Shown piece after piece: positions 7,573 through 34,958 of a stretch of DNA of 37,547 bases (its first letter is position 1; the number at the start of each line of letters is the position of its first letter). This DNA comes from an uncultured Candidatus Saccharibacteria bacterium (lineage in GTDB: Bacteria; Patescibacteriota; Saccharimonadia; Saccharimonadales; EFPC-124). The stretch is from the NCBI GenBank assembly GCA_964436805.1, contig CAYTEG010000004.1, forward strand, positions 1 to 37,547, in the 5' to 3' direction. The position numbers were made by a program, and so were the translations under genes. The notes beneath the pieces are model-generated. The model was given only the letters and a program-made list of their open reading frames with translations. It did not search any database and had not been told where the DNA came from.

Positions 7573-7579
7573 TACCCCA

Positions 7580-7602: not shown

Positions 7603-7608
7603 GGGTAT

Positions 7609-11393: not shown

Positions 11394-11467
11394 AGTCGCA
11401 TCACCATCTTAGCAAATGGCGCCCAGCTGCGATAGCAAAGTGCTTACATAGCCGTTACAATAAAAGT

Positions 11468-12751
11468 ATGTCAGAAGCTACCGATCGGAATCCTCACGAC
11501 GACCCTACCCAAGAGTCGTTGGATGAGCCTACAGACAGCAAAGCAGCAGTCCACCTTGCCCGCTATCAAAAAAACGAAGCCGGCCAGCCAATGCCTGCCC
11601 CGCCTCTGCCAGAGGTAGAAGATGCAATTTATCGCCATTTCGAAAAAATAGCACAAGAAATGAGCGAGACGCTTACGTCTAAAGAAGATGGCCTCGATAT
11701 GGCAAGGGCCCGAGAATTTATTGAATTACTTGGTTTAAGCCCCGACGCCCAAATATTTATCCTCGACGACGATGATTATGCAATATACGAAGAACGTTTT
11801 GCGGCATTGCTTAATACGGCTATGAGCGAACGCGAAGGTTCTTATGCGCCGTCGGCAAATATTGTTGCCGTGCACCGTGACCGCGCGCTCGAGGAGCGTT
11901 TTGGCCCGGCTATTACCGAGTACCGTTTGATACATGAGTTAGCCCACGCATCGGCCAAAGGCCAATCCTATTTATATACCGCCAATGACGAGGCGGGTAA
12001 GGATATAGAAATAATGCCTGGGCGCGTCGGCTACCTTACGGTTGTCGCTGGCAACCGCGAAGAATTTAGCGGCAGTTACCTAGAAGAAGGGTTTGCCGAC
12101 ATGATTGCCTGGCAATATGTTGTCGAGGCCGGCATTACGGCCGGGTTTGGCGACAACACCGAGCCATTGGTTTTGTCTACTATGGATGGAGTGGTTGAAG
12201 TGTCGGTAGATATGCAAATAGACGGCGACGCCACCAAAGCGGCCGTTGCCACGACTGGCTTACGCCTTTTGTTTAAAGAAGACCCGACGTTACTTGAGTC
12301 GTTTATTGCTGCCCGAAATGACCCAAAAGCGGCAAAAGAAGTAGCCGTTAAAATAACCAACATTGGCCAAAAGATAGGGTACCCAACCTTGTACAGGGAT
12401 ATATGGAAATGCGGCATTGGGCTCGACGATTTTATCGACACAACCCGAAAAATTGTCTTAGCCATCGACCCTGCCCTCGCCGCCCAATGGGACGAACGCG
12501 ACTTTGCGTCGGAAAATGACGGGGACGAAGATGAGGAAGGCAAAGTTGATACTGGCCCTACCACCGACACAAGTACCGCCGAAGATTTTAATGCTGATTT
12601 AGCCTTTATTGACGAGCGGATTAACCTGTTATTAGCACAGGCAGCCGGCAGAGAATTGACGCCTGCCGAGAGCCAACAACTAGATAATCTTAAGTCTAAC
12701 CGGCAGCTTACGCTCGATGAGTTAAAAGCGGCTTTACGAGCTAAGGTTTAG
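11468..12751 (+). CDS. Acidic protein with zincin-type HExxH motif
   Basis: LIHELAHA plus downstream LEEGFAD (gluzincin-like third ligand); no signal peptide. Confidence 0.65.
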   Translation: MSEATDRNPHDDPTQESLDEPTDSKAAVHLARYQKNEAGQPMPAPPLPEVEDAIYRHFEKIAQEMSETLTSKEDGLDMARAREFIELLGLSPDAQIFILDDDDYAIYEERFAALLNTAMSEREGSYAPSANIVAVHRDRALEERFGPAITEYRLIHELAHASAKGQSYLYTANDEAGKDIEIMPGRVGYLTVVAGNREEFSGSYLEEGFADMIAWQYVVEAGITAGFGDNTEPLVLSTMDGVVEVSVDMQIDGDATKAAVATTGLRLLFKEDPTLLESFIAARNDPKAAKEVAVKITNIGQKIGYPTLYRDIWKCGIGLDDFIDTTRKIVLAIDPALAAQWDERDFASENDGDEDEEGKVDTGPTTDTSTAEDFNADLAFIDERINLLLAQAAGRELTPAESQQLDNLKSNRQLTLDELKAALRAKV

Positions 12752-12826
12752 CTTCCAATAGATCATTTTGGAGTAATATATAGCTATGAGCGTAGCGACA
12801 ACCGAGCGTTTAAGACGGAGGCAACT

Positions 12827-13675
12827 ATGAAACCACGCCAAACAAAAAACGACGTCATATTGGTAAGCCTTGCGGCCGGTTTTACGCTTGTCACTACAAT
12901 TGCCAGTTTGGCCATGAACAACCTTAGCACTATGCAGCTCCTGGGTACGACCCAAACGCTGCTTTTGGTGGCGTTTGCAGTGTGGCATGCCATCATGCGC
13001 TACGGGTTTAAAGGCCTGGCGGTGTTCTTTTTAGCCTCGCAAATTGTCAGCCATGCGCTCGAGAACCTAAGCATTTCGACTGGCTTCCCCTTTGGTAATT
13101 ACCATTACAGCCAGGGCTTGGCGTTTTTGTTTCAGGTACCGATTGTTATTGGCATCGCCTATTTTGCCTACGGCTATTTGGCCTGGATGGTCGCCAATGT
13201 GCTGCTTGGCAAACTCGACGAGCGCCTAAAACAATGGGCGACGGTTATTTTGCCGCTCACGGCCGCCTTTGTAATGGTGATGTGGGATGTGGTGATGGAT
13301 CCGATCAACTCGACCGTCAGGCATTATTGGATTTGGGAAGAAGGCGGCGGCTACAACGGTGTGCCGCTCACTAACTACTTGGGTTGGTTTTTAACAGTGT
13401 ACTTGTTTTACCAGATTTTTGCGCTGTACGTACGCGCCTACGCGCCATCTGTTAAACAGGCCAGCGCCGTATTTTGGGCAACTCCTGTTGTAGTATATTT
13501 AGTAACTGGGCTGTCGTTTGTACTTATGTATTTTGTTGTCGATGCCGCGGTTGTGACCGACGCCGCCGGCCATGTTTGGGATAAACGGGGCATTTACGAA
13601 ACCGCCGCGGTTGTAAGTTTGTTTACCATGGTATTTACGTCGTTTTTGGCGATCGTTAAGCTCAAAAAACTTTAG
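12827..13675 (+). CDS. Carotenoid biosynthesis family membrane protein (CruF/DUF422-like)
   Basis: ENLSISTGFPFGNYHY, VP, WDVVMDP, YWIW, GVPLTNYLGW motifs; GGAGG SD. Confidence 0.85.
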   Translation: MKPRQTKNDVILVSLAAGFTLVTTIASLAMNNLSTMQLLGTTQTLLLVAFAVWHAIMRYGFKGLAVFFLASQIVSHALENLSISTGFPFGNYHYSQGLAFLFQVPIVIGIAYFAYGYLAWMVANVLLGKLDERLKQWATVILPLTAAFVMVMWDVVMDPINSTVRHYWIWEEGGGYNGVPLTNYLGWFLTVYLFYQIFALYVRAYAPSVKQASAVFWATPVVVYLVTGLSFVLMYFVVDAAVVTDAAGHVWDKRGIYETAAVVSLFTMVFTSFLAIVKLKKL

Positions 13676-14721
13676 TAACGGCTTGTTTTGTTAAACACGT
13701 AGGCGGCGTACAAAAACATCGCGCCACCGATAATAGAAAGTAGCATCGTGGTGAGGCTGGCGAACATTGGCGCTTGGCCGGTCGTGAGCCACACTAACCG
13801 GATCATCAACAACACGAGCCCACCCATTGCCATGGCGACCGCCGCCACAATAAGGCACAAAATCGCTTTTTTATACAGCGACCCAACTTTGCGCACGACC
13901 GCCCGGCCAAGCGCCACGCTTATGCAGGCAAAAACGGTAAGCAGCCCGACGCCGACAACCGACGCGTCGTAAATAGGTTCGGGCAGGTCGGTTGCTGCGT
14001 GCGGCAGTAAAATACACACAATTACTACTGGCACGACGGCAAATGCGACGTTTTTAAAAGCGACAAGCGCCGAGTTTATACTTAACTGCTTGGCAAATGT
14101 ACGGAACGCCAGGTACAGAAAAATACCAATCGCCGCGTCGAACACCGTAAACGCCCATGTTTTGACCCACCACGAATCTGCCAAAATACCAAACAGCGTA
14201 AATTGGCCAATCAGCAGTGCGCTACACATAACCACAAGGCAAAGCATGACGTACGCCTGCCGCAGCTGCTTGTTGAACGTGCGGGCAGCTTCGGCCAGCA
14301 AAAAGATGGCGCCGACACAAAATGTTACAAAGCCAGCTAAATACGGTGTTTGCGGCACGGCCGACGACCCGCCGGCCAGGCCAATGCCCAGCCCTAGCCC
14401 GACCGACAGGCCAATAATAACCCCCACTAACACCCTTAGTCGGTTGTAGCGCTGGTGACCTTGTATATTTTCGTACAGTTTTTGCTCTAAAACGTCAGGT
14501 TCGAAGCGCCGGAACGGATCTTCTTTTACCAAATAATCTTTTAGTTTAGATTGCAGGCCAAGCAACACTTGTTCGTCTTGCGGCGCCAGCGGGCTGTTGG
14601 CGTCTTGCCGCGACGTGATAACTCGCAAACGGTCGAGCCATGGGTCGATATGCTTCACGTCCGAAACAAGCGACGCGAGGTATAAAATGTTATTAACAAG
14701 AGTTTGGTGGGTTTCGGTCAT
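13672..14721 (-). CDS. Membrane protein, N-terminal soluble helical domain plus about 8 TM
   Basis: Hydropathy pattern of the 349-aa ORF. Confidence 0.7.
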   Translation of the reverse strand: MTETHQTLVNNILYLASLVSDVKHIDPWLDRLRVITSRQDANSPLAPQDEQVLLGLQSKLKDYLVKEDPFRRFEPDVLEQKLYENIQGHQRYNRLRVLVGVIIGLSVGLGLGIGLAGGSSAVPQTPYLAGFVTFCVGAIFLLAEAARTFNKQLRQAYVMLCLVVMCSALLIGQFTLFGILADSWWVKTWAFTVFDAAIGIFLYLAFRTFAKQLSINSALVAFKNVAFAVVPVVIVCILLPHAATDLPEPIYDASVVGVGLLTVFACISVALGRAVVRKVGSLYKKAILCLIVAAVAMAMGGLVLLMIRLVWLTTGQAPMFASLTTMLLSIIGGAMFLYAAYVFNKTSRY

Positions 14722-15296: not shown

Positions 15297-17045
15297 TTAG
15301 CGTAGTTTGCCTATAATAACGGCCGCAATCCACACCAGCGCAATGCCGCCAGGGATTATGAGTAGCCACGCGAGGTCTGGGTTATTTGATTGAGGCTGGT
15401 CGGTTGTGTTTTGGTTTTGAGTGTTATTGTGCGTGGTCGTTGGCGAGGTTTCGGCTGGCGTTGATGCTGCAGTTGTGGCTGGTGTTTCTTCGGTTACGGC
15501 CGCATTGGTTGTTGACGATGCTGTGGCTGCGCTCCCCAATGACGACCCGCTGCTGCTTACCGCGGCCGCCACTGTGCTGGTAATAAACCCAAGCCACACG
15601 CCGTTGCCTTTGGCGTTGTTTGCCCGCACTTGTATGTAATAAGTGGTGGATGGGCTCAGGTTGGTGATTGTGTATGTAAGCGTCGCAGCCGACAAGCCAG
15701 ATACATCGTTATTAAACGTGGTACCGTCGGTGCCCCACTGCAAATCGTAGCTGGTGACGGCGCTGCCGCCGGTGTCGGCTGGTGGATCCCACATGACTTT
15801 TAGCGTGGTGTCGCCGCGCGTGACGCGCACGTTGTCGGGCCGCCCTGGTACGCTTTGCAAGGTTGGGTAGCTAGTAGCGTTGGTGCGCCAAATGGTCGAA
15901 AAATCCCAGTGGTTGAGCGGCGCGTTGGTGTGGTTGTTAAAAAAGTAGTTGGGCGCGGCGTTCGACACATTTACGCCCGTGCAGTCGACGGTGATTTGCA
16001 AATCCCCCACGCAGTCGGCTTGGCCGCTGCGCGAAACGTCCCAGTAGCTGCTAATAATGTCACCTGGTAGTCCAGCGTTGGTAACGCCCACAAAGCCGCC
16101 CGCAGTAAAGCCGCTCACGCTGCCAACCGAAAAGCTGTCGGTAATAACGCCGTCGTCGAGCCCGCCGGCAAAACCGCCCACGTTGCTGCCGGTGGCGGTT
16201 ACACTACCGCTGGCGTAGGCGTGCACGTAGGCGCTGTCGTTTACGCGGCCCGACATGCCGCCAACGTAGTTGTGGCCAGTCACGTTGGCGGTGGTAAAAC
16301 TGTCTTCGATGTTGGCGCCGTTGCCGTCGGTGCCGGCAAACCCGCCGGTGTACTGCGCCTGCGTTGGGTCGTCGATGTTGGCGGTCACACCACCACCCAG
16401 CACATAACTGCGGCTGACGTCGGCCATGTTAACTTCGCCGGCAAACCCGCCAATTTCGCTGGTTGCGCCCGAGCTATTGGTGCCGTTAACGGTGGTGTTA
16501 GAGGTGCCGCTGTCGGACGCGCTGCAGCGGAACAAACTGCCAGCCAGGCCACCAATAAGCGCCAAGCCCATGGCGTTGCTGTTAGTAATGGTGACGTGTT
16601 CGATACTGCAAAACCCGGCCGTGCCGCCAGTGAGCACACCCACGTAACTTTCGCCCTGCACCGCCGAATCGGTGATGGTGAGGTTGCTCACCGTTGCGCC
16701 GTTTACAAGGCGGAACATGCCTACATGGTGGCCCGAAAGTTCAATAGCGTTTATACCACTTATGGTGTTAAAGCCGCCGTCGAGCGTGCCGGTAAAACCG
16801 GGGCCGGTGTTGCCAATGGGGGTAAACATCGACGCCGAGCAGTCGATATTATTCATTATTTTGTAGCTAGCGGCGAGGTCGCTGCCAATTTCTTGCAGCT
16901 GGGCGCAGGTAGTGATTTTGAACGGGTTAATTGGCGTGCCCGCGCCCGCACCGCTAAACGCCAACGCAGCGGGAACGTTAAAAAACGACGCAAAAACGCT
17001 CAGCAAAAATAACGCAGCAAACACCAGGCTCTCTCGTCGCCTCAT
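15297..17045 (-). CDS. Surface protein: GLUG-motif beta-helix + fibronectin type III domain + S/T linker + C-terminal TM
   Basis: Signal peptide from ATG 17045; FSGAGAGT..PF.I start; repeated VGG(L/F)AG; WDPPADTGGSAVTSY..LSPSTTYYIQVRA.N..G.G; C-terminal hydrophobic helix ending KLR. Confidence 0.85.
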   Translation of the reverse strand: MRRRESLVFAALFLLSVFASFFNVPAALAFSGAGAGTPINPFKITTCAQLQEIGSDLAASYKIMNNIDCSASMFTPIGNTGPGFTGTLDGGFNTISGINAIELSGHHVGMFRLVNGATVSNLTITDSAVQGESYVGVLTGGTAGFCSIEHVTITNSNAMGLALIGGLAGSLFRCSASDSGTSNTTVNGTNSSGATSEIGGFAGEVNMADVSRSYVLGGGVTANIDDPTQAQYTGGFAGTDGNGANIEDSFTTANVTGHNYVGGMSGRVNDSAYVHAYASGSVTATGSNVGGFAGGLDDGVITDSFSVGSVSGFTAGGFVGVTNAGLPGDIISSYWDVSRSGQADCVGDLQITVDCTGVNVSNAAPNYFFNNHTNAPLNHWDFSTIWRTNATSYPTLQSVPGRPDNVRVTRGDTTLKVMWDPPADTGGSAVTSYDLQWGTDGTTFNNDVSGLSAATLTYTITNLSPSTTYYIQVRANNAKGNGVWLGFITSTVAAAVSSSGSSLGSAATASSTTNAAVTEETPATTAASTPAETSPTTTHNNTQNQNTTDQPQSNNPDLAWLLIIPGGIALVWIAAVIIGKLR

Positions 17046-17120
17046 TCCCCGCAAACCCCTTATGATTAATAGTGTATAGTAAAATGCGGCCTGCGCCAAC
17101 AGGTTTGCTATGATTGTAGT

Positions 17121-17666
17121 ATGTCTATAAAAATCACCTATTTTGTGCACGGCACCACGACCGATAACGAAAAAGATATGTCCTCTGGCTGGAACGACGC
17201 GCCGCTTTCTGAGCTTGGCGAGCAGCAATCGAAAGAGCTAACCGCCAAAACGGCGCAACATACCTTTGACGTTGTGTTTACGTCGGATTTATCGCGCGCG
17301 GTTAATTCTGCCAAAATTACCTGGGGCGACAAGTACAACATTGTGCAAGATGCGCGCCTGCGCGAGTGTAACTACGGCGACTACAACGGCAAGCCCAGTG
17401 TAGTTGTTGAGCCGCTGCAAGAAAAATCAATCACCACGCCCATGCCCGGCGGCGAAAGTTACGAGCAGGTTAAACAAAGAATCGCCGCGTTTTTAGCCGA
17501 CATAAAAAAAGATTACGACGGCAAACACATTGCAATTGTCGCCCACAAAGCGCCGCAACTGGCGCTCGATGTTTTGCTGCGCGGCATGACGTGGGAGCAG
17601 GCTTTCGCCAACGACTGGCGCGTCACAAAACAGTGGCAGCCCGGCTGGGAATATATGTTAAATTAA
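17121..17666 (+). CDS. Histidine phosphatase (phosphoglycerate mutase) family protein
   Basis: VHG (RHG variant), SDLSRA, LRECNYG, GGESY, IVAH motifs. Confidence 0.85.
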   Translation: MSIKITYFVHGTTTDNEKDMSSGWNDAPLSELGEQQSKELTAKTAQHTFDVVFTSDLSRAVNSAKITWGDKYNIVQDARLRECNYGDYNGKPSVVVEPLQEKSITTPMPGGESYEQVKQRIAAFLADIKKDYDGKHIAIVAHKAPQLALDVLLRGMTWEQAFANDWRVTKQWQPGWEYMLN

Positions 17667-21573: not shown

Positions 21574-22212
21574 ATGGCGATCGAGTTGATCGACGTCTAC
21601 GACCGGTTCATGCGTTGGACGGGCGAGCGACTGCCCAAGGATGAGCTGCACGCCCAGGGCAAGCTGCACATTTGCGTGCACTGTGTTATCACCAACGGTA
21701 ATTGTGAGGTACTCGCACAGTTCCGCGGCAAGGTCGGGCACATGCCGGAAGTTTGGGACGCCATGAGCATTGCCGGGCACATTACGGCGCTCACCGACGA
21801 AGAGCGCGCCGACCCGGCGATGTGGGACGTGCTTTGGCAGGCGTGGCGCGCGGCGCAGCGTGAAGGCCAAGAAGAGCTTGGCGTAGAGTTGCCCGACAAC
21901 ATGTTGCTGGGCGACGACTGCCGGTTGGTGGGCGTTACGCTCGTCGACCAACTCACCGTTGCCGGCTGGCGCGACCACGCGTTCTGCATCAACTTCATGG
22001 TGCGGCTGCCCGAGCTCGAGATTTCGCAGCTCAAGCTCGAGGTGCCGAAGGTCACTGCTGCGAAGTGGGTGCACGTCAGCGACATCGAAGCCTGGCTCGA
22101 AAGTCGCGAGGGCGCGCCGTATGCCACGCGCATGCCCGACGACTACGAACTGCTGCAAAGCGTGGTAGATACTGCCCGCCGCATGTTGATCGTGGAGCAG
22201 GACGACGAATGA
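21574..22212 (+). CDS. NUDIX hydrolase, IPP-isomerase type 1/YfcD-like
   Basis: ELIDVYD..TG...K..H..G.LH..VHC.I.N....L.Q.R.....P..WD..AGH...AAQRE..EELG; GGGAGG SD. Confidence 0.8.
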   Translation: MAIELIDVYDRFMRWTGERLPKDELHAQGKLHICVHCVITNGNCEVLAQFRGKVGHMPEVWDAMSIAGHITALTDEERADPAMWDVLWQAWRAAQREGQEELGVELPDNMLLGDDCRLVGVTLVDQLTVAGWRDHAFCINFMVRLPELEISQLKLEVPKVTAAKWVHVSDIEAWLESREGAPYATRMPDDYELLQSVVDTARRMLIVEQDDE

Positions 22213-22226
22213 CCTGACGAAAGTGT

Positions 22227-22263
22227 GGTGAGTAGTGCGGGCGATCTGCCTGCACTACTCACC
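22227..22263 (+). terminator. 16-bp-stem hairpin without U-tract
   Basis: GGTGAGTAGTGCGGGC-GATCT-GCCTGCACTACTCACC. Confidence 0.65.
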
Positions 22264-22288
22264 CACCGCAATATCGCTAAAATTTTAA

Positions 22289-22330
22289 ACGGCTGGCAGC
22301 CACACCCCGAAGGGCATGGCCACCAGCCGT
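22289..22330 (-). terminator. Imperfect hairpin just after the stop of the minus-strand gene
   Basis: ACGGCTGG...CCC-CGAA-GGG...CCAGCCGT. Confidence 0.5.
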
Positions 22331-22335
22331 AATTG

Positions 22336-22980
22336 TTACGCGCCGAACCATTCGCCGGGCGGGTAGAGCACGATGTACACCGACTTGCCGTTGAGATATA
22401 CATCGAGCGCATACCGGCCACCCGACGCCTTGCTCGGCATGGCCTCGGCCAGGTCGAACGTGATGTCCTTGCGGCCGCTGGGCTCGCCGTACACACCGAA
22501 CTGCCCGTCGTACGCGTCGTACGACAGACGCAGCGTCGGCTGGTCGCCCAGCGTCAGCGTTGGTGCGGCGGCCAGTTTGCCCTCGCTCTTGGCGTAGGAC
22601 GCGCCGAACTGCCGCTCCCGGTAGTCGATACGAACATGCCCGGTGGCGTACTGCTTCAGCCGGCCGAAGTGCGCCAGGTCTTCGACCCACGTGCGCACGG
22701 GCTTGTAGCCCCACGCCGCGGCCTTCGGGCCTTTCGGGCTGTCGACCATCTTGACGACGATCCACTCCAGTCGGCGCGTGCCCTTCCACCACCGCGGCTC
22801 GCGGTCGCAGAGGCGGTTGGTCAGCTGGGGCGCCTCGGGCGTGCCCTCCACCTCGCGGCATGCGCTCATGTGGAAGAACACCCGGTAGCGCCCGGCTTCG
22901 GCGAACCCGAACTTCTTGACCGGGTCGTAGCACGACACGTGCGCGATGACCGTGCCGTCAGTGCTGGTTGTGCTGTCCAT
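22336..22980 (-). CDS. Protein with N-terminal cold-shock-like OB domain and unknown C-terminal domain
   Basis: YDPVKKFGFA (RNP1-like), RVFFHMS (RNP2-like), KGPKAAAW; AAGGAG SD before ATG 22980; GC-rich. Confidence 0.7.
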   Translation of the reverse strand: MDSTTSTDGTVIAHVSCYDPVKKFGFAEAGRYRVFFHMSACREVEGTPEAPQLTNRLCDREPRWWKGTRRLEWIVVKMVDSPKGPKAAAWGYKPVRTWVEDLAHFGRLKQYATGHVRIDYRERQFGASYAKSEGKLAAAPTLTLGDQPTLRLSYDAYDGQFGVYGEPSGRKDITFDLAEAMPSKASGGRYALDVYLNGKSVYIVLYPPGEWFGA

Positions 22981-23030
22981 GGCTTCTCCTTGAATGGCTG
23001 GAACGGGGGAACCCGCACCAGACACCAGGA

Positions 23031-23197
23031 TTGACCATCAAGCTGGCGCGAGCACCGGCGAAACGCTTAAAGCCCAGCTCGACAAAATTTCGTTCGACGG
23101 TGTCACCGGCCACATTTCTTTTGACAAAAACGGTGACGTGAGTGGTAACTTTCAGGTGTCTATAATTAAAGACGGCAAACCGCAGCTGCAAAAATAA
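23031..23197 (+). pseudogene. C-terminal remnant of a branched-chain amino acid-type ABC substrate-binding protein
   Basis: AGASTGETLKAQLDKISFDGVTGHISFDKNGDV...IIKDGK matches the LivJ/LivK-type C-terminus; roughly 300 N-terminal residues are missing; 5' boundary approximate. Confidence 0.7.
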
Positions 23198-26847: not shown

Positions 26848-27711
26848 ATGGACGGTATGGTATATGTCCCTGGAGGCAGCTTTCTTCAGGGAACACCCCG
26901 ATGGGTGCTAGATTGGCTCAACAAGCAGGACGGCCAGGCCTTCCCGCCTGGGTGGTTTGCCGATGAGACGCCGCAGTTACTCGTCGACATCGCTTCTTAT
27001 TACATCGACCAGCATTTGGTGACGAACTTCGGGTTTGCGCGCTTTTGCGCCGACACCGGCTACGTCACCGACGCCGAGCGATGCGGTTACGGTATGGTCT
27101 ATACCGATTACTGGGAGGAGCGACAAGGCGCAAACTGGCAGGCGCCCGCCGGCCCCGGCAGCACAAACGCCGGGCGCGAAGACCACCCCGTTGTGCATAT
27201 TTCGTGGCCGGACGCGAATGCATATGCGCTGTGGGCGGGCAAACGGTTGCCGACCGAGTCAGAATGGGAGCTCGCCGCTTGCGGCCGAAACTTCCGTTTG
27301 TGGCCATGGGGTAACCAATGGGATAGCCGGCTGGCAAACACGGCCGAACTACATGCTGGCGAGCTGGGCACGCTCGAAGCGTGGCGCGCATGGTGGCAAC
27401 GCGTGTACGCTACCCACGGCCCAATGCCGCAGACAACGCCGGTGGGCGCGATAAGCGCCGGCCGCAGCGATTACGGCGTTTGCGACATGGCCGGCAACGC
27501 GTACGAGTGGACGGCAACATTGTCGCACTTGTACGATCCAACCGTCGAATGCGACCCGATGCTCCGCCTCGTCATGGGCAAGTACCGGGTTATACGCGGC
27601 GGTTCGTGGATGAATTTTCGGTACCAAGTGCGGTGTTCCGAACGCATCCACGGCGACCCTGCCGGCTGGTCGAACTTTGCAACCGGGTTCCGATGCGCGA
27701 AAGACGCGTAG
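26848..27711 (+). CDS. FGE-sulfatase (SUMF1/EgtB/PvdO) domain protein
   Basis: MVYVPGGSF, DETP, VTN..FARF, HPVVHISW.DA.AYA.WAGKRLPTESEWE, DMAGNAYEW, RGGSW, GFRC; AGGAGG SD. Confidence 0.9.
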   Translation: MDGMVYVPGGSFLQGTPRWVLDWLNKQDGQAFPPGWFADETPQLLVDIASYYIDQHLVTNFGFARFCADTGYVTDAERCGYGMVYTDYWEERQGANWQAPAGPGSTNAGREDHPVVHISWPDANAYALWAGKRLPTESEWELAACGRNFRLWPWGNQWDSRLANTAELHAGELGTLEAWRAWWQRVYATHGPMPQTTPVGAISAGRSDYGVCDMAGNAYEWTATLSHLYDPTVECDPMLRLVMGKYRVIRGGSWMNFRYQVRCSERIHGDPAGWSNFATGFRCAKDA

Positions 27712-27727
27712 TACAAAAGGAGGAAGC

Positions 27728-27994
27728 GTGGCCACATTGACCCTCTCTTCTGCGTGGACGCAGGGGGGACAGTCGAAATTCGAGGTGGCGGCGGGCAACC
27801 TGCACGATGTGCTCAAGGGTTTCGCCGCCGCACAGCCACAGTTCGCCAGCCGGATCCTCGGTGCCAATGGCGAACCGTTCACCTTCTACAACATCTACAT
27901 CAACGACGAGGCGATCCAGCGCTCGGCGCGGGCCTCGACGGTCGTGGCCGATGGCGACGAGATCACCATCGTGCCGCCGCTGGCGGGTGGCTGA
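27728..27994 (+). CDS. MoaD/ThiS (CysO-like) ubiquitin-fold protein
   Basis: 88 aa from GTG 27728 (AGGAGG SD); NIYINDE, DGDEITIVPPLAGG C-terminal diglycine. Confidence 0.9.
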   Translation: MATLTLSSAWTQGGQSKFEVAAGNLHDVLKGFAAAQPQFASRILGANGEPFTFYNIYINDEAIQRSARASTVVADGDEITIVPPLAGG

Positions 27995-28278
27995 TGGCCA
28001 TCCGGCATATCACCCTGTTCAGACTGGACGATACCGTCAGCGAGGCCGACAAGGACGAGGCGCTTGCGCGGCTGCGAAGCCTGCGCACGAGCCTCGACCT
28101 GGCCGACTGGGAAGTGGCGGAGTCGCTCGACACGCGGCGCGGGATGGTGCTGGTAGTAAACAGCACCTTCGCCGACGTCGCAGCGCTGGCGGCCTTCGCC
28201 GCCTCGCCGGCACATATCGAAGTCGCAAACTTCATGCGCGGCATCGCCGCCTGGCTGGTGGCCGACTACGAAGTGTGA
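27994..28278 (+). CDS. Dabb (stress-responsive dimeric A/B barrel) family protein
   Basis: MAIRHITLFRL...L..L.SL...F.D..AL..F..SPAH.......ADYE; TGATG coupling to the MoaD gene. Confidence 0.85.
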   Translation: MAIRHITLFRLDDTVSEADKDEALARLRSLRTSLDLADWEVAESLDTRRGMVLVVNSTFADVAALAAFAASPAHIEVANFMRGIAAWLVADYEV

Positions 28279-28909: not shown

Positions 28910-29110
28910 TTAAGGCCCGTAGTCGCGTTGGCCGTAATTTATAGTGCCGTCTTTTTTTTCGTTGCGGCTCAGCACGCCAACTAATGCCGACAACCCAAAC
29001 AAGGCCGACACGCCCAGCCCGAGCGTGCCTAAAAACTGCTTGCGCGTCATTGGCGTTGCCAGCAGTTTGTCGACTTTAGCCTTAATCGTCTTTGGGTTTT
29101 TCTCCACCAT
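28910..29110 (-). CDS. Small membrane protein with Tat-like MTRKQFL motif and C-terminal YG repeats
   Basis: 66 aa; MTRKQFLGTLGLG + hydrophobic helix; ends NYGQRDYGP. Confidence 0.65.
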   Translation of the reverse strand: MVEKNPKTIKAKVDKLLATPMTRKQFLGTLGLGVSALFGLSALVGVLSRNEKKDGTINYGQRDYGP

Positions 29111-29151: not shown

Positions 29152-29763
29152 CTAGTTGGCCACCGCTGTGTAGGTTACCTGGGTGCTGTACGAACCGCTG
29201 GCGACGTTGGTGTTGGCGCAAACGCCGTACCAAATCGTTGTCGCAACAGCCGGGTTGGCCGCCGAAGTGGTACTTGCGATGATGTCGGCACTGGCGTTAC
29301 TGGCTTTTATAGCAGCAAAAGACGTGGCATTGGGGCTGATGTTGCTTTGTGCTGTCGTTGGCCCGCTGCCAAAACTGCCGAGCCCGTCGACCCGGTATCC
29401 CCATGCATTGGGAGTGAGCGCCGCCGGGCTTGCCAACGTGCCGCCCCCGGCGTTAATTGAGCTGCCGCCGTTTACCAATGCCGTATTTGTGGTTGCGTCA
29501 GAAAGCATTAATGTGTAGCCGTTGGCGTCGTCGGTTTGTACCGACGCTTGGTCGCTTTGTACCGTGCAGTTGCCGCTGGCTGTGGGCGTAACGTTAAGGG
29601 CGACGTTGCCGTTACTAATAAGGGTGACGCTGCATACGGCGCCGTAGTTGCACGACCCGTATGTGCTGCTGCCGTATGTTCCGCTGGTAAGGGCAAATGC
29701 CGGCATACACACGGCGAGCAACATGCTAACCGCCGCGCTTAACCCGACTATGCTGCGTTTCAT
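29152..29763 (-). CDS. Secreted pilin/WxL-like subunit, paralog 3 (YG-rich, Cys-containing N-terminus)
   Basis: Signal peptide ending AFA; shares GYTL, WGYRVDG.G.FG.GPT and G.Y...VTYTA.AN with paralogs 1-2; four Cys in the mature part. Confidence 0.75.
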   Translation of the reverse strand: MKRSIVGLSAAVSMLLAVCMPAFALTSGTYGSSTYGSCNYGAVCSVTLISNGNVALNVTPTASGNCTVQSDQASVQTDDANGYTLMLSDATTNTALVNGGSSINAGGGTLASPAALTPNAWGYRVDGLGSFGSGPTTAQSNISPNATSFAAIKASNASADIIASTTSAANPAVATTIWYGVCANTNVASGSYSTQVTYTAVAN

Positions 29764-30668
29764 GGCGATTTTTTGTAGGATGTCTTTTTGGCTGCACGTT
29801 TGCGGGCCATAAACCGCATGGCAATCACAATCGTCGCGCCGGCCAGCATAATGATCAGCCCAATTTTAACCGGCATCGACATTATAAACACCCATTTTGT
29901 TGGCAATTGCTGGGTTTGGCCAAGCATTTGTATGTTGCCAGTGATTTGGAAGATGCCGATAAACGGCGTGTCGTTCCAGGCAATCGGCACTTTGCGGATC
30001 GTTTGCGGCAGGATTTCTTTTGTTGTCTCGAGGCTATACTTTGACTGGCCAAAAATATCGCGCACGTTTACTTGTATCGTTGCCGGGTAATGCACGCCGC
30101 CGGTGTTAACCAGCCTAATGTTGGCCAAAAGCGGCGGTTCTTGCAAAAAGTCGCTATCCCAATTAAGCAGCGCGCCTTTTTCGCTCACCTGCCCCGCAAC
30201 CTTAATGTAAAATATTTCGCCGACCCGTTTGTTGAGCGTAATGCTGCCAGGTTGCTCGGGGAAGGCTGTTTGGGCAAAAACGACCGCGTAGTAGCCGCCC
30301 GGCGCAACGTCTTTTGGTACGGTAATCGTGTATTTTATGGTGGCTGCCTGCCCGGCTTTTAGTTCGCCGCCGGCGCCCGAAAAGCTAAACCATTTGTCGG
30401 CCGGCGTAACGCTTGGCAGCGGTGTGAAATCGGGAGTGTATTCTTCGCCCGAGACATGGTACGGGGCGCTGCTCACCTGAAACGGGTAATCGGTTTGCCC
30501 TTGGTTTAAAATTTGGAACGTGCCTTCTTGCGATGCTCCGGGTGTGATCTCGGGGCTCGCCGAAGTTGGCGTTATAGTTATTTCTTGTGATGCTGCGTGG
30601 GCAGCGCCTGGCAAGGCCAGTGCCGCCACAATCATGGCCGGTATAAGTAAGTGACGCAGTATTTTCAT
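29760..30668 (-). CDS. DUF916/WxL-interacting-like Ig-fold protein with C-terminal TM anchor (chaperone-like)
   Basis: Signal peptide; ITP, N.G, W, YTITVPKDVAPGGYYAVVFA, NTGGVH, ILPQTIR; C-terminal TM followed by a basic tail. Confidence 0.75.
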   Translation of the reverse strand: MKILRHLLIPAMIVAALALPGAAHAASQEITITPTSASPEITPGASQEGTFQILNQGQTDYPFQVSSAPYHVSGEEYTPDFTPLPSVTPADKWFSFSGAGGELKAGQAATIKYTITVPKDVAPGGYYAVVFAQTAFPEQPGSITLNKRVGEIFYIKVAGQVSEKGALLNWDSDFLQEPPLLANIRLVNTGGVHYPATIQVNVRDIFGQSKYSLETTKEILPQTIRKVPIAWNDTPFIGIFQITGNIQMLGQTQQLPTKWVFIMSMPVKIGLIIMLAGATIVIAMRFMARKRAAKKTSYKKSP

Positions 30669-30669
30669 A

Positions 30670-31266
30670 TTAATTTGCGGTTAAAGTATACGTGACGCTG
30701 TTGGTGTAGGTGCCAGACGGTTGCGACGTGTTTGCGGCAACGCCAAACCACACGGTCGTGGTGTCGCTGGTTGCCGTGCCAGCTGTTGTTTTAATGGTGT
30801 TGGGCGAAGCCGTGGCCGGCACCGCCGCAAACTTAATGCTGCCGCTGACCGCTGCGCTACTTTGGCCAGATGTTGGCCCAGCGCCAAACCCGCCTAAGCT
30901 ATCAACCCGGTACCCCCAGGTGTTGTTGACCATTGCGATTGGCACCGCCTGAGTACCCGCCGATGCCGGGATGCTGTTGCCGCCAGATACCAGCGCCGAG
31001 CTGCCGGTTGTTTCGGCCAGCTGCAGGGTGTAGCCCGATGAGTCGTTGGTGCTGACCGTAACGGTGTCGCTGGCGATTGTTTGCGCGCCCGACGCCGTTG
31101 GTACGACGTTAGCGTTTACGGTGGTACTGGTGGTAAATAATCCAATAACAGGGCTCACGACCGAGCTTATCGTTGTCGAGGCAGTCGCTGCAAACACAAC
31201 GGCCGATGTGCCAAAAAATACAGCAATTACAGCAATTAGATAAACGGCAAGTTTTAGCTCTTTCAA
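30670..31266 (-). CDS. Secreted pilin/WxL-like subunit, paralog 2
   Basis: Likely TTG start at 31266 behind GGGAG (ORF extends to 31305); signal peptide ending VFA; C-terminus PSGTYTNSVTYTLTAN. Confidence 0.75.
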   Translation of the reverse strand: MKELKLAVYLIAVIAVFFGTSAVVFAATASTTISSVVSPVIGLFTTSTTVNANVVPTASGAQTIASDTVTVSTNDSSGYTLQLAETTGSSALVSGGNSIPASAGTQAVPIAMVNNTWGYRVDSLGGFGAGPTSGQSSAAVSGSIKFAAVPATASPNTIKTTAGTATSDTTTVWFGVAANTSQPSGTYTNSVTYTLTAN

Positions 31267-31571
31267 CTGGTTCTCCCTCGGTAGCAACTTAAGCTTGATG
31301 ACCACAGCTTAACACGCTTACGCTACTAAGAGCAATGCTTTTTGTGTAATTAATTAGCAATGCCGGTATACGTGACGCTGTTTGTGTAGGTGCCCGTTGG
31401 GAGCGTGGTGTTGGCTACCACGCTAAACCAAACAGCGGTGGTGTCGTTTGTGGCGGTCGACGACGTGACTTTAATAGTGTTGGGGCTGGCACTTGCCGGC
31501 ACTGCCGCAAAAGTGGCGGCACTTACGGCTGCGCTACTTTGGCCAGATGTTGGCCCAGCGCCAAACCCGCC
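30851..31571. repeat. 44-bp exact direct repeat shared by paralogs 1 and 2 (30851-30894 and 31528-31571)
   Basis: GCTGCGCTACTTTGGCCAGATGTTGGCCCAGCGCCAAACCCGCC in both copies. Confidence 0.9.
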
Positions 31572-31976
31572 GATTCCATCGACCCGGTATCCCCAACTAT
31601 TTGCGGTGAGCGCGCTTGGTGAAGCCTGGGTGCCGGGTGCCGCAGGGATAGTGTCGGCGCCAGAAACAAGCGCCGATTCGGCCCCGGTGCGCGAAATTTG
31701 CAAAGTGTACCCGTTTTGGCCACTGGTGCTTACGGTTATGGTGTCACTGGCGATTGTTTGGGTGCCGGCCGCAGACGGGGTAATATTAACGTTTACCGCG
31801 CCGCTCGAGGTAAATAATCCCATGACAGAGGTAACCGTCGAGCTGATGGTCGTTGCTGCCGTTGCCGCCGAAACAGCCGTGGCCGTCAGCATGACGCCGC
31901 TGCAGGCCACGCACAACGCTAAAACAATCTCGGTAATAAGGGCTAAATGGGGCGCGTGTTTTTTTGTGTATGCCAT
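31350..31976 (-). CDS. Secreted pilin/WxL-like subunit, paralog 1
   Basis: Signal peptide ending VSA; collinear with paralog 2; C-terminus PTGTYTNSVTYTGIAN. Confidence 0.75.
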   Translation of the reverse strand: MAYTKKHAPHLALITEIVLALCVACSGVMLTATAVSAATAATTISSTVTSVMGLFTSSGAVNVNITPSAAGTQTIASDTITVSTSGQNGYTLQISRTGAESALVSGADTIPAAPGTQASPSALTANSWGYRVDGIGGFGAGPTSGQSSAAVSAATFAAVPASASPNTIKVTSSTATNDTTAVWFSVVANTTLPTGTYTNSVTYTGIAN

Positions 31977-32131
31977 GTTGGTTTTGTATGCAAACGCTTA
32001 CGTTTAAGTATAGCTAATCGTTTATTGAATGAAAAGTATTTTTAGGCGGCATTGCCTGCACTATGGCGCTCATGGTAACATACAATTAATTACGATCAAA
32101 AAGGGGAAGCCTCGGCGGCGAGCACAATATT

Positions 32132-32545
32132 ATGACACGTTTACCTACTCCCGGCGGCGATGGCAACAACTGGGGAACGCTTTTAAATGACTTTTTGCAG
32201 CAGGCGCTCGCGAGCGACGGCACTTTAGTTACCGGCGCGACCAACACCTACACTGGCGCCGCAAACACTAACCTGGCCAGTGGCAGCAAGCCGGGTTTGG
32301 TGCAGCTGGCCGGCGATTTAAGCAACACGGCCGCCTCGCCCACCGTTGTTGGGTTACGTGGCCGCGTGGTTGATTCGGCAACGCCCAGTAACGGCGATGT
32401 TTTAACCTGGAACACTAGTGCCAGCAAGTGGCAGGCCGTCCAGCCGGCCGCTGGCGGCAGCGGGCTCACCGGCGATATCGACGGCGGCAACGCATCGTCA
32501 ACCTACGGCGGCGTCACCATCATCGACTGCGGAGCTTCGGCTTAA
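32132..32545 (+). CDS. Small fibre-associated protein with RLPTPGGD..WG.LLNDFL N-terminal motif
   Basis: N-terminal motif recalled from Saccharibacteria fibre-like proteins; GLVQLAGDL, P.NGDVLTWN....W and IDGG are tail-fibre-like motifs. Confidence 0.7.
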   Translation: MTRLPTPGGDGNNWGTLLNDFLQQALASDGTLVTGATNTYTGAANTNLASGSKPGLVQLAGDLSNTAASPTVVGLRGRVVDSATPSNGDVLTWNTSASKWQAVQPAAGGSGLTGDIDGGNASSTYGGVTIIDCGASA

Positions 32546-33580
32546 ATGGCCACGCAAATTCAGTTTAGGCGCGATACAGCCGCCAACTGGATATCGGCAA
32601 ACCCGGTGTTGGCCGTTGGCGAGGTCGGGCTCGAAACCGACACAAATTCGTATAAAATCGGCGATGGCGCGACCGCCTGGACAAGCCTTGGCTACCGGCA
32701 GCTCGCGCCCGAAATCACTACATTATTAATGGACGGCCAAAGCAGCGACGCTTCGGCCCCGACGGCTGGTGATTTAACAGTGTACGCCAAGGCAATTGGC
32801 GGCCGCATGATGCTTAAACAAATTGGCGCGAGTGGGCTTTCGACTGCCCTGCAGCCGTTTTTGGCGCGCAACAAAGTTGGTTATTGGGATCCGCCTGGCA
32901 ACGCCACCACGGTGCCCGGCGTGTTTGGTTACACCGCGCTTACCACAACCGGTACGGTTACGGCGCGTACGGTGGCCACAACCAACACCTTTACTTTAAT
33001 GCGTCGTTTGGGGTTGGTATCTTCGGCGACCGCCGGTAACTTAGCGGTTGGCCGCGTTGCCGTGGCGCAGGTAACACTTGGCGACGGCGCCGGCAATGGC
33101 GGTTTTTACAAAATTTGCCGGTTTGGCTGCAGCGACGCGCTTACTGTGGCGGGCGCGCGCCAGTTTGTTGGCGTGAGCTCGTCGACATCGGCGCCGACCA
33201 ACGTTGAGCCATCGACGCTCACCAACAGTATTGGCGTTGGCCATGGCGCGGCCGACACCAACCTCAAAATGTTTTATGGCGGGAGCGCCGCCCAAACGCC
33301 AATTAACCTTGGCGCCAACTTTCCGGCCAACACGCTCAGCACCGACGTATACGAGCTTGCTTTGTTTTCGCCGCCCAACGACAACAACCACGTGTACTAC
33401 GAGGTTACGCGCATAAATACCGGCCATGTGGCGGCCGGCACGCTTACCGGCACGGCGGGCACGGCTTTGCCGGCTTCTTCGACGTTGTTGGTATACCAGA
33501 TGGCGTGGCGCTCAAACAACGCAACGGCCAAGGCGGTGGGGCTCGATATTATGAGCGACTACATCGAAACGGACAACTAG
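32546..33580 (+). CDS. Phage tail-fibre-like protein, Mtd_N/hyaluronidase-N-type N-terminal domain (copy 1)
   Basis: QIQFRRDTAANWISANPVLAVGEVGLETDTNSYKIGDGATAWTSL; no signal peptide. Confidence 0.8.
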   Translation: MATQIQFRRDTAANWISANPVLAVGEVGLETDTNSYKIGDGATAWTSLGYRQLAPEITTLLMDGQSSDASAPTAGDLTVYAKAIGGRMMLKQIGASGLSTALQPFLARNKVGYWDPPGNATTVPGVFGYTALTTTGTVTARTVATTNTFTLMRRLGLVSSATAGNLAVGRVAVAQVTLGDGAGNGGFYKICRFGCSDALTVAGARQFVGVSSSTSAPTNVEPSTLTNSIGVGHGAADTNLKMFYGGSAAQTPINLGANFPANTLSTDVYELALFSPPNDNNHVYYEVTRINTGHVAAGTLTGTAGTALPASSTLLVYQMAWRSNNATAKAVGLDIMSDYIETDN

Positions 33581-33582
33581 CC

Positions 33583-34608
33583 GTGGCTGTGCAAATTAAA
33601 TGGCGGCGCGATACAGCGGCAAACTGGACGGCGAATAATCCGGTGTTGGCGGCTGGCGAACCGGGGTTCGAAACCGACACCGGCGCGTATAAAATCGGCA
33701 ATGGCTCGGCTGGCTGGAATTCGCTCACCTACGGCGCGTTTTCGGCCAACCCAATTGCCGCTCTGTTTTCTGGCCGCGCAACCGACCCGTCGGCGCCGGC
33801 CGCCGGCAATTTAACCGTATATAGCAAGGCGATCGCCGGCCGTCAGATGCTTAAACAAGTTGGCCCGAGCGGGCTTTCGACGGCAATCCAGCCGTTTTTG
33901 GGCCGTAACAAGGTTGGCTACTGGTTGCCACAGGGTAATTCTACGACGGTGCCGGCTGTTTTTGGCTACACGGCGCCAACTGGCATTGGCACCGCGACCG
34001 CAGTAAACGTCACGACCACCAATGTATTTACGCGTATGCGGCGTTTAAGTTACGTCACAACCACCGCGGCCACTGCATACGCCGGCCAGCGCGTCGCGGC
34101 CAACCAAATTTGCATGTTTGGCGGGTTTTACAAAATTGTGCGTTTTGGCATAAGCGATCCGGTGGTTGCCTCGCCGTCACTTATGTTTGTGGGAGTCAGC
34201 GCCGCCAACGCCGCTCCATCTGGCGGTGGCGACCCGTCGACGCTGGTAAACAGTATTGGCGTCGGGCATGGTGGCTCCGACACCAACCTCAAACTATATT
34301 ACGGCGGCAGCACCGCTCAAACGCCTATCGATTTAGGCGCCAACTTTCCTATTAACACCACAAACACCGACGTTTACGAACTGGCGTTGTTTGCGCCAGC
34401 TGGCAACTCGAACGATATTTACTACGAAGTCACGCGCATTAACACCGGCGACGTCGCCACCGGCCTGATCGCTGGCGACGGCAACGGCATAGTGGTGCCC
34501 GCCCCAATGACCTTGTTAAACTATTGCTACCACTGGCGCTGCAACCTGGCGACCGCCCTTGTGGTGAGCATAGATATAATGAGCGACTACATCGAAACCG
34601 ACAACTAA
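33583..34608 (+). CDS. Phage tail-fibre-like protein, Mtd_N-type N-terminal domain (copy 2)
   Basis: GTG start at 33583; QIKWRRDTAANWTANNPVLAAGEPGFETDTGAYKIGNG; collinear with copy 1, same C-terminus DIMSDYIETDN. Confidence 0.8.
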   Translation: MAVQIKWRRDTAANWTANNPVLAAGEPGFETDTGAYKIGNGSAGWNSLTYGAFSANPIAALFSGRATDPSAPAAGNLTVYSKAIAGRQMLKQVGPSGLSTAIQPFLGRNKVGYWLPQGNSTTVPAVFGYTAPTGIGTATAVNVTTTNVFTRMRRLSYVTTTAATAYAGQRVAANQICMFGGFYKIVRFGISDPVVASPSLMFVGVSAANAAPSGGGDPSTLVNSIGVGHGGSDTNLKLYYGGSTAQTPIDLGANFPINTTNTDVYELALFAPAGNSNDIYYEVTRINTGDVATGLIAGDGNGIVVPAPMTLLNYCYHWRCNLATALVVSIDIMSDYIETDN

Positions 34609-34958
34609 CGCGGTATTTGGCTAATAATCCAAAACGGTGCCGTGTTTTGCTGTTTGGTGTATATTGTGCCGGCGCGCGCGGTGTCGATGTGCGCCATAAT
34701 TGTGGTGTATTCTTTTAAAATCGCGGGAGTAAGTGCCGATGTTTCGTCGCCGCAGTACACAACAGGGGTGACTGGCTGCCTGGTGTTGCTTGTAATTTGT
34801 GTAATGTGCCCGCGCACGTCAACTTGTATGGTGCGCACGCCCGCAACGGTGGCGCTGATGGTTATGCTCGCCTGGGCTTTGGCGATAGGCGCTAGTCCTA
34901 TTGCAAACAACACCCAAATAACAACAAACGCCACGGTTCGTCGCCCAGAATAAATCAT
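34605..34958 (-). CDS. Small secreted protein
   Basis: Signal peptide ending AKA; mature start QASITISATV. Confidence 0.6.
   Translation of the reverse strand: MIYSGRRTVAFVVIWVLFAIGLAPIAKAQASITISATVAGVRTIQVDVRGHITQITSNTRQPVTPVVYCGDETSALTPAILKEYTTIMAHIDTARAGTIYTKQQNTAPFWIISQIPR

Follow-up and report, generated by a model that had tools for sequence, protein, structure and literature searches.

Results

A central question about Patescibacteria is how they locate their hosts and keep hold of them. The filaments known from these bacteria are type IV pili and, since 2026, Pam pili, and we know of no receptor-binding part that has so far been named for the latter. The locus described here puts the question in concrete terms: what are three genes of phage tail-fibre type doing beside a pilus operon, with no phage around them? 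The genes, g1, g2 and g3, lie on contig CAYTEG010000004.1 of the uncultured Candidatus Saccharibacteria assembly GCA_964436805.1 (lineage Patescibacteriota; Saccharimonadia; Saccharimonadales; EFPC-124). The whole stretch analysed, positions 1 to 37,547 of the forward strand (37,547 nucleotides), is called the window below. With moderate confidence, we favour the reading that a phage tail-fibre module was captured by environmental Saccharibacteria and kept as a lectin-tipped fibre, linked to the Pam pilus, for glycan-directed adhesion. The locus offers a concrete, expressible candidate, and its three genes are good candidates for how these tiny parasites, here from a soil Saccharibacteria group, grip other cells.

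Three coupled genes of phage tail-fibre descent

The operon and the region that separates it from the pilus genes are laid out as follows.

31977-32131: divergent intergenic region between a pilin gene and g1, 155 bp
32132-32545, plus strand: g1, 137 amino acids (aa), ATG start
32546-33580, plus strand: g2, 344 aa, putative fibre tip with an Mtd_N head (aa 5-43) and a C-terminal domain of concanavalin A (ConA)-like lectin fold (aa ~60-344)
33583-34608, plus strand: g3, 341 aa from a GTG start, a g2 paralogue of the same architecture

A first-pass annotation, made from the sequence alone, had described a tightly coupled three-gene operon with gaps of 0 and 2 nt, separated by 155 bp from a pilin-like operon, and our coordinates agree on both counts. 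The ATG of g2 directly follows the TAA of g1, and the 2 nt are counted from the TAG of g2 to the GTG of g3. A start for g3 at 33505, given by mechanical open reading frame (ORF) calling, was rejected, as it would overlap g2 and as orthologues begin at the equivalent of 33583. The 155-bp region presumably contains the promoters of both operons. A promoter scan of this region was not informative (6 sites against 3.7 expected); a single weak consensus promoter-like site falls within it on the minus strand (32035-32007). Scanning for promoters and terminators gave background levels only.

The annotation had also read g2 and g3 as paralogues of about 340 aa with Mtd_N heads and had proposed an origin from phage tail fibres. 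The two proteins are 62% identical, and at aa 5-43 both match Pfam Mtd_N (PF18454) above its curated cut-off of 26.3 bits (g2, 57.7 bits, E 1e-15; g3, 59.1 bits, E 3.9e-16). Their N-termini match many tail-fibre PHROGs, and aa 59-343 match phrog_13925, annotated as of unknown function, with E 1.3e-26 and 2.4e-25 over profile positions 365-639 of 640. In a search of phage genomes, g2 aa 77-343 showed 59% identity to the C-terminus of Rhodobacter phage RcKemmy gp22, a 716-aa protein whose gene lies between large tail protein and holin genes, the usual place of a tail-fibre gene in phages. The second phage match, Curvibacter phage protein P26059A_0006, was 44.5% identical. When 1.84 billion cluster representatives were scanned with a profile for the g2 C-terminal domain, 21,133 proteins passed a limit of E <= 0.001 and 990 one of E <= 1e-30; among the 150 matches listed, the domain always stood at the extreme C-terminus, in proteins of 259-1604 aa.

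Scanning species-representative genomes gave 31 related loci, numbered with an L below: 13 titled Saccharibacteria or Saccharimonadales, one titled 'bacterium UBA6025' with the same gene context, and 17 from other taxa. The 13 titled loci and 'bacterium UBA6025' are together called Saccharibacteria-type (n = 14). Phage protein families surrounded the homologue in all five other-taxon loci scanned with PHROGs (L029, L027, L025, L020 and L014), and in four of them, L025 being the exception, these included named virion or tail families. The homologue follows a central tail fibre J-like protein in L029, a very large tail protein in L027 and a tape measure in L014; in L020 it lies among a head protease, a major tail protein and a neck protein, and the neighbours in L025 match only phage families of unknown function. 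Taken together, the Mtd_N heads, the tail-fibre PHROGs, the homology to RcKemmy gp22 and the relatives in phage contexts bear out the proposed origin: g2 and g3 derive from phage tail fibres.

An AlphaFold2 model of g2, built from 66 sequences, reached a pLDDT of 92.5 and a pTM of 0.82, and in it the C-terminal domain folds as a concanavalin A-like jelly roll. The best fold match in the PDB was Shewanella SO2946 (2a5z; E 7.8e-8). Many legume lectins also matched, with target-normalised TM scores of 0.51-0.62, as did CBM2 of the Dit protein of Lactobacillus phage J-1 (5ly8). In BFVD the best matches were uncultured tailed phages (TMq up to 0.81), and the matches included entries labelled ConA-like lectin/glucanase and SO2946-like. 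Going by this modelled lectin fold, the C-terminal domain of the tips would most likely bind carbohydrate. A reading of the tips as variable proteins of a diversity-generating retroelement was rejected: the fold is ConA-like and not that of a C-type lectin, no reverse transcriptase domain was found among the window ORFs scanned, and there was no near-identical repeat pair, the sole repeats reflecting the 72-79% similarity of the paralogues.

Two further observations concern this domain. Giant-virus proteins, from Fadolivirus and, with collagen repeats, from Indivirus, matched the g2 model with TMq 0.72-0.78. A 708-aa protein in locus L007 (608-2734), encoded 7 kb from the fibre operon, combines an N-terminal signal peptide with a distant copy (27% identity) of the lectin-fold domain; because of this signal peptide, the domain class can be said to occur also on a Sec-exported Saccharibacteria protein.

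Absence of a prophage from the window

The first-pass annotation had seen no capsid, terminase or integrase in the window. We selected ORFs for scanning, 38 against Pfam and 39 against PHROGs, from the 90 that reach 100 aa and from a few shorter ones. No capsid, portal, terminase, tape-measure, integrase or lysis family matched any of them as such, which upholds that statement. The PHROG rows in virion categories were confined to a 'minor tail protein' family over the fn3 region of a 643-aa protein and a 'portal protein' family over a NUDIX domain; both are generic domain matches. No tRNA genes were found in the window. The fibre genes are not part of a prophage.

Conservation of the fibre genes in Saccharibacteria

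Scoring of 8000 candidates gave 1602 homologues of g2 at E <= 0.001. The best 120 of these, the first being the window's own protein, were 338-349 aa long and 64-100% identical. Several of the best homologues lie on contigs of 0.8-1.1 Mb, and most of the few with names are Saccharibacteria or Saccharimonadales.

The whole layout of the window is repeated in six loci (L003, L004, L007, L009, L010 and L023). Loci L006 and L011 have g1, g2 and g3 and, downstream, the small gene; at the edge of the contig lies a partial pilin gene. The more distant L008, L012, L013, L022 and L031 also have chaperone and pilin genes adjoining the tip gene, though their order differs. L005 is uninformative, since it starts within the tip gene and has no upstream sequence. 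Pilus genes therefore adjoin the fibre genes in 13 of the 14 Saccharibacteria-type loci, in two arrangements, the fourteenth being the one that lacks upstream sequence. The flanks of L013 and L022 are housekeeping genes, the cluster following tilS, ftsH, murJ, lepA and tatC.

In a maximum-likelihood tree the two tip genes separated by position, with support of 93/92 for the position-1 clade and 100/99 for the position-2 clade, which includes g3. Because the paralogues form separate clades in this way, the duplication predates these genomes and both copies have been kept. The ratio of nonsynonymous to synonymous substitution (dN/dS), taken only from pairs with a computable dS (it was saturated in the rest), was 0.10-0.17 against the window for g1 (median 0.16 over 10 of 36 pairs), 0.06-0.10 for g2 (5 of 45 pairs) and 0.09-0.13 against the window for g3 (median 0.14 over 6 of 45 pairs). 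Judged by these substitution patterns, the fibre genes are under strong purifying selection.

Conserved synteny, an old and retained duplication and dN/dS of 0.06-0.17 lead us to conclude that the fibre module is domesticated. The annotation had drawn the same conclusion, and neither the pseudogenes nor the lost linkage in relatives that would have spoken against it were found. The linkage with the pilin-like operon, which it had proposed to check in other Saccharibacteria, holds in all the Saccharibacteria-type loci that have upstream sequence.

A Pam-type pilus operon next to the fibre genes

The genes on either side of the fibre operon are the following.

28910-29110, minus strand: 66-aa 'Tat system-associated' membrane protein (NCBIfam NF038009 TatB_1, sub-cut-off)
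29152-29763, minus strand: 203-aa short Pam-type pilin-like protein with a signal peptide, of the same family as the 208-aa and 211-aa proteins
29760-30668, minus strand: 302-aa membrane-anchored PapD-like pilus chaperone, PamC/PamD-like and WxLIP-like by AlphaFold2 model and fold matches
30670-31305, minus strand: 211-aa short Pam-type pilin-like protein with a signal peptide (NCBIfam CPR_Pam_pilin_C, sub-cut-off)
31350-31976, minus strand: 208-aa short Pam-type pilin-like protein with a signal peptide, a paralogue of the 211-aa protein
34605-34958, minus strand: 117-aa secreted protein with no assigned function, convergent with g3

Pam pili were recently described from Ca. Mycosynbacter amalyticus in a preprint that reports cryo-electron microscopy structures of the filaments PamA and PamB (Troman et al., bioRxiv 10.64898/2026.03.03.709456, June 2026). 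In the parts of that text covered here, assembly proceeds by donor-strand exchange with the membrane-anchored PapD-like chaperones PamC and PamD, and the pilins are called exclusive to the candidate phyla radiation (CPR) (bioRxiv 10.64898/2026.03.03.709456).

Three pilins of L022, encoded in the same cluster as its fibre gene, scored 141-147 bits with CPR_Pam_pilin_C, above the cut-off of 55. The 211-aa protein of the window matched the same family with E 1.6e-4 and 21.8 bits, and the L003 orthologue of the 203-aa protein with E 2.9e-3; the 208-aa protein had no family match of its own. A PamR-type protein of about 365 aa is encoded next to the cluster in 9 of the 14 loci, and the three copies scanned matched the PamR NCBIfam model with E ~1e-50, below its 300-bit cut-off. 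In the AlphaFold2 model of the 302-aa chaperone (pLDDT 85.9) a signal peptide precedes two beta domains, and residues 265-299 form a C-terminal helix. Its best match in the PDB was WxLIP of Enterococcus faecium (9i1y, 9i25; E 1.9e-12), followed by the chaperones CfaA, CsuC, FimC and SafB, and by RbmA. On the basis of the NCBIfam matches to the L022 pilins and PamR and of the chaperone fold, we assign the neighbouring operon as a Pam-type donor-strand-exchange pilus operon; what the first-pass annotation called pilin-like is thus a true pilus operon.

Our first guess for this operon had been a WxL locus of the Firmicutes type. The Pam assignment replaced it, and the likeness to WxLIP stands. 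Sub-threshold matches to WxLIP_PGBD, in the same register, were found in 5 of 15 members of the chaperone family (L022 18882-19925 and L013 14716-15708 among them), and the Atlas look-alikes of the 211-aa protein include seven WxL-domain clusters (score 0.92). The window proteins themselves fall below the Pfam thresholds for WxL and WxLIP. It may be that Pam and WxL are one kind of machine; neither Pam nor CPR is mentioned in a WxL pilus preprint of October 2026, in the parts covered.

g1 as a candidate adaptor

The first-pass annotation had singled out the 137-aa protein by its start, RLPTPGGD..WG.LLNDFL, and by an IDGG near its end, and both motifs are present. The start is the window's form of an N-terminal anchor motif, RLPxPGGDxxNWGxxLNxxL. 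The sole Pfam match of g1 was a DUF5907 repeat below cut-off (E 1.3e-3), so that no curated family covers it, and neither a profile comparison with PDB sequences nor tblastn against phage genomes gave a match. Its Atlas look-alikes were viral small proteins only, including the N-terminal cluster of T4 gp9/gp10 (0.91), which we take as a lead and not as evidence. There were 84 homologues of near-equal length, the few named ones being of Saccharibacteria type. In the alignment the N-terminal motif is conserved, the short shaft motifs are of phage-fibre type and interchangeable, and the C-terminus takes one of two forms, of which a double DGG is the commoner.

In each of the 12 loci with upstream sequence, the tip gene is immediately preceded by a gene of g1 type; eight of these genes encode 134-137 aa and four encode 159-174 aa with the same N-terminal motif. 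In the Paracoccus locus L029 and in contig L025, the gene immediately before the Mtd_N-lectin gene encodes a small protein that likewise closes with the double DGG. These are two of the three full-length homologues in phage contexts; in L020 the upstream gene is on the opposite strand. Among the 14 loci, L013 has the sole g1-like protein without the double-DGG end, and the N-terminus of its tip is not Mtd_N.

Complex prediction with three copies of g2(1-110) and three of g1 gave a score of 0.56 (runs 0.57, 0.53 and 0.56). The best of three controls scored 0.00, contacts agreed between runs to at least 91%, and partner pLDDT was at least 80. When the tool was calibrated, 116 of 157 solved complexes and 2 of 215 mismatched pairs came up to the mark; of the solved complexes only 18 did so with a score of 0.60 or less, as did both of these mismatches. 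The double-DGG ends upstream of Mtd_N genes and the complex score each give weak support to the proposal of the first-pass annotation that g1 is an adaptor, here for the Mtd_N tips, and on the whole we hold this reading to be likely.

The N-terminus of g1 is shared more widely. In 37 longer proteins (245-1468 aa) the first 30-110 residues of g1 continue into other fibre or spike parts, some of them Beta_helix or Pectate_lyase_3 domains. These longer proteins (P0379, P0384, P0382, P0355 and P0360 among them) have no signal peptide, and at least one shares a contig of 1,087,182 bp with homologues of g1 and g2. As far as the alignments indicate, the g1 N-terminus follows the pattern of a shared anchor with exchangeable distal parts. 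No fusion of g1 to a tip was found among nine longer g2 homologues, which had neither g1 motifs nor a clear Mtd_N before the lectin domain.

In L022 extra fibre-like genes stand between the tip gene and the pilus genes (11125-14109). Their products measure 234, 143 and 549 aa; the first has the g1 N-terminus and a different end, and the last matches T4 gp36 and minor-tail proteins very weakly (E 0.1-0.5).

Possible export of the fibre proteins

The first-pass annotation had noted that none of the three proteins has a signal peptide, and hydropathy agrees: the maximal 15-aa Kyte-Doolittle mean in the first 60 residues was 0.38-1.15 for g1-g3 and 2.1-2.9 for secreted or membrane neighbours. With no signal peptide on g1-g3, surface display would need a route that was not found here. 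A twin-arginine signal in g2 and g3 was considered and rejected, as their RR at residues 8-9 belongs to the Mtd_N fold and no hydrophobic stretch comes after it; in g1 there is a single R.

One lead concerns the twin-arginine translocation (Tat) system. The 66-aa protein of the window, whose gene stands last in the pilus operon, has a TRKQFL motif, one transmembrane helix and a short YG tail, and matches NF038009 TatB_1 below cut-off (E 2.1e-10). All seven copies scanned, the window's and six others, match TatB_1 in this way (E 2.6e-13 to 2.2e-6, all sub-cut-off). Members of this family in the cluster are 58-93 aa long and combine a single transmembrane helix with the conserved motif (T/D)RK(E/Q)FL and a YG tail at the C-terminus. 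The protein is encoded in all 11 loci, the window included, that cover its position. In L008, L012, L013 and L022 its gene is the first of the fibre operon, 3-4 nt before the g1-like gene:

L022, 9270-9473: Tat-associated protein
L012, 5451-5660: Tat-associated protein
L013, 8898-9104: Tat-associated protein
L008, 9191-9472: Tat-associated protein

TatC is encoded in or beside the cluster in 6 of the 14 loci, at three relative positions (Pfam E 1e-42 to 1e-49 in the four scanned); it was not found in the window by Pfam scan of the selected ORFs or by tblastn. A speculative account, which we consider unlikely, is that the fibres fold and trimerise in the cytoplasm and then cross the membrane folded through Tat, escorted by the Tat-associated protein. 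The escort protein or the shared g1 motif would then hold a repertoire of lectin- or depolymerase-tipped fibres on the cell or on the Pam pilus. If true, this would amount to a phage-like, exchangeable host-recognition kit and to a new way of displaying signal-less phage proteins on cells. How signal-less fibres of phage type would leave the cell is in any case a problem of cell biology that the locus raises, and Tat is a testable lead.

The 117-aa protein encoded downstream of g3 had no family match in Pfam, PHROGs or NCBIfam, and whether it is part of the fibre module is uncertain. In L003, L006 and L011 a homologue immediately follows g3, and in L007 one is encoded at a different place. By predicted ORF starts, four of five copies have RR just before the hydrophobic signal stretch.

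L003, 12064-12480: homologue of the 117-aa protein
L006, 2922-3332: homologue of the 117-aa protein
L011, 2954-3382: homologue of the 117-aa protein
L007, 4243-4683: homologue of the 117-aa protein

Discussion

A proposed fibre for adhesion and its rivals

The account that we favour would run as follows. An environmental Saccharibacteria lineage would have captured a phage tail-fibre module once, duplicated the tip gene and kept the module as a cellular accessory of a Pam-type pilus locus. The g1 protein would be a short stalk or adaptor whose N-terminal motif docks on some cellular partner and whose double-DGG end carries the Mtd_N heads of the tips. In g2 and g3, the tips, the head would be followed by the domain of concanavalin A-like lectin fold. 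The assembled fibre may then serve glycan-directed adhesion, most plausibly to the envelope of a host or prey bacterium, and jointly with the pilus. In this chain we infer trimer formation, the binding of g1 to g2 and g3, surface display, carbohydrate binding and the target.

Several results weigh against it. No signal peptide or transmembrane segment is present in g1, g2 or g3, and the Pam model of Troman et al., in the parts of the text covered, provides its own tip pilin (PamT), an anchor (PamR) and Sec signal peptides on all parts (bioRxiv 10.64898/2026.03.03.709456). The first-pass annotation had suggested that the fibres perhaps act as adhesins at the tip of the adjacent filament, the place that this model gives to PamT. 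PamR is absent from the window by tblastn and from the closest relative, L003. Two of the three pilin-like proteins of the window do not match CPR_Pam_pilin_C, and the third does so only below cut-off. In the tips no sugar- or metal-binding site was identified, and their identity to lectins in the fold matches is only 7-14%. The predicted g1-g2 complex gives weak support. The tips are also 50-70% identical to homologues in Proteobacteria-labelled genomes or metagenome-assembled genomes and in a Rhodobacter phage; such conservation, with the low dN/dS, would be easier to explain by a shared ligand or a structural role than by host-specific recognition. A tip domain so strongly conserved in both Saccharibacteria and Proteobacteria-labelled genomes calls for caution in naming the tips host-range determinants.

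This same conservation of the C-terminal domain across hosts and Saccharibacteria, unusual for host-range determinants, speaks for a rather unlikely alternative in which the target of the lectin domains is the surface of the very cell that makes them (its wall polysaccharide, for example, or glycosylated Pam pilins) or their part is purely structural, so that the module would decorate, bundle or anchor the pilus. The constant linkage of the module to pilus genes is also in its favour, and the Troman et al. preprint, in the parts covered, leaves pilin modification open. Against it, the phage versions of the domain sit at the distal C-terminal end of fibres, the usual place for receptor binding. 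That the genes are intended for a virus-like particle encoded elsewhere (a prophage, a tailocin or a particle like a gene transfer agent (GTA)), with their position beside the pilus an inherited gene order, we regard as very unlikely. GTAs do keep fibre genes away from their main cluster, the proteins are signal-less as virion parts are, and the gene next to the RcKemmy match is annotated as a GTA TIM-barrel-like protein. However, the linkage of fibre and pilus survives two gene orders, which points to selection for keeping them together; the loci scanned (the window, L022 and parts of L023, L007 and L008) showed no virion gene within 10 kb; and homologues are carried by chromosome-like contigs of about 1.1 Mb.

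Selection also bears on the idea of a functionless, decaying prophage remnant, which phage-fibre homology without other phage genes nearby might suggest. Intact frames (338-349 aa in the best 120 homologues), orthologous paralogue clades, dN/dS of 0.06-0.17 and conserved synteny make it scarcely credible. Related fibres are evidently used by phages of the phylum, as a TM7 phage has an Mtd_N-type N-terminus on a pectate-lyase-type protein, and the module might accordingly serve anti-phage defence, for example as decoys that occupy or mask a receptor used by Saccharibacteria phages with similar fibres. We know of no precedent for this, and it leaves the conserved pairing with pilus genes unexplained; we hold it to be highly improbable. 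Adhesion by a lectin-tipped fibre linked to the Pam pilus remains the reading that we prefer.

Comparison with known systems

The association of a fibre gene with Pam genes is already in print, in one sentence: a 'tail fibre-like protein' is central in the pamA neighbourhood network (bioRxiv 10.64898/2026.03.03.709456). That protein likewise stands beside a donor-strand-exchange pilus operon in Saccharimonadia, and we compare it with g2 and g3 by description only. The words phage, lectin and Tat do not appear in the preprint text as covered, nor do the three-gene layout, the lectin fold, the adaptor, the paralogue pair, the missing signal peptides or the Tat-associated gene. Architecture, fold, adaptor, paralogues, selection, signal-lessness and the Tat-associated gene were likewise not in the other texts, as far as these were covered.

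By description, the closest functional analogue is the family of mosaic adhesive trimer (MAT) fibres of Bdellovibrio bacteriovorus, likewise phage-tail-fibre-like proteins in a bacterium living off bacteria (Caulton et al. 2024, PMC10769870). According to the parts of that paper covered, the N-terminal part of MATs is conserved and their adhesive tips vary, lectin-type folds being among them; each genome encodes several members, a repertoire comparable to the longer proteins that share the g1 N-terminus. They are trimeric single long chains with a signal peptide and a conserved N-terminal domain of about 130 aa (PMC10769870). The window fibre, unlike these, is split into a 137-aa stalk and tips of about 340 aa, is signal-less, has an Mtd_N head and a ConA-like tip, and is linked to a pilus. 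It would be a second, independent case, after the Bdellovibrio MATs, of a bacteria-dependent bacterium borrowing phage fibres. We would place the locus among the phage-fibre-derived adhesins of bacteria living on bacteria, as a type distinguished by its split into stalk and tip, its lack of signal peptides and its link to a donor-strand-exchange pilus.

With Mtd of Bordetella phage BPP-1, a tip protein separate from the fibre shaft, g2 and g3 have the N-terminal Mtd_N in common and nothing else: the receptor-binding domain of Mtd has a C-type lectin fold and is diversified by a retroelement. The phage fibre-tip domain of RcKemmy gp22 and P26059A_0006 is homologous and likewise stands at the protein's end. 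Those versions are in phage genomes, whereas that of the window is chromosomal, duplicated and pilus-linked; proteins with the phage domain are annotated 'hypothetical protein' or 'unknown function'. The WxL/WxLIP loci of Gram-positive bacteria (9i1y, 9i25) resemble the neighbouring operon and not the fibre genes, and the WxL papers (PMC10599100, bioRxiv 10.64898/2026.10.17.759780) mention no phage-fibre partner in the parts covered.

Literature searches found nothing joining WxL with Saccharibacteria and nothing relevant on tail fibres as adhesins in Saccharibacteria. WxL and 'major tropism determinant' did not occur among the best literature matches listed in broader searches. By term search of the text covered, fibres are not mentioned in the 2023 Cell paper on Saccharibacteria genetics or in the 2025 Mycosynbacter paper.

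Other features of the window

Two regions may encode further surface proteins. Within 5965-8253, the gene of a class F sortase (7609-8253, plus strand; NCBIfam E 1.2e-33, below cut-off) overlaps, on the opposite strand, the end of an ORF of 639 aa without family match. The fn3-containing protein of 643 aa is encoded at 15297-17228. The highest G+C stretches of the window are 22001-23000 (0.644) and 27001-28000 (0.630), against about 0.53 elsewhere, and at 22277-23034 long ORFs without family match overlap on both strands.

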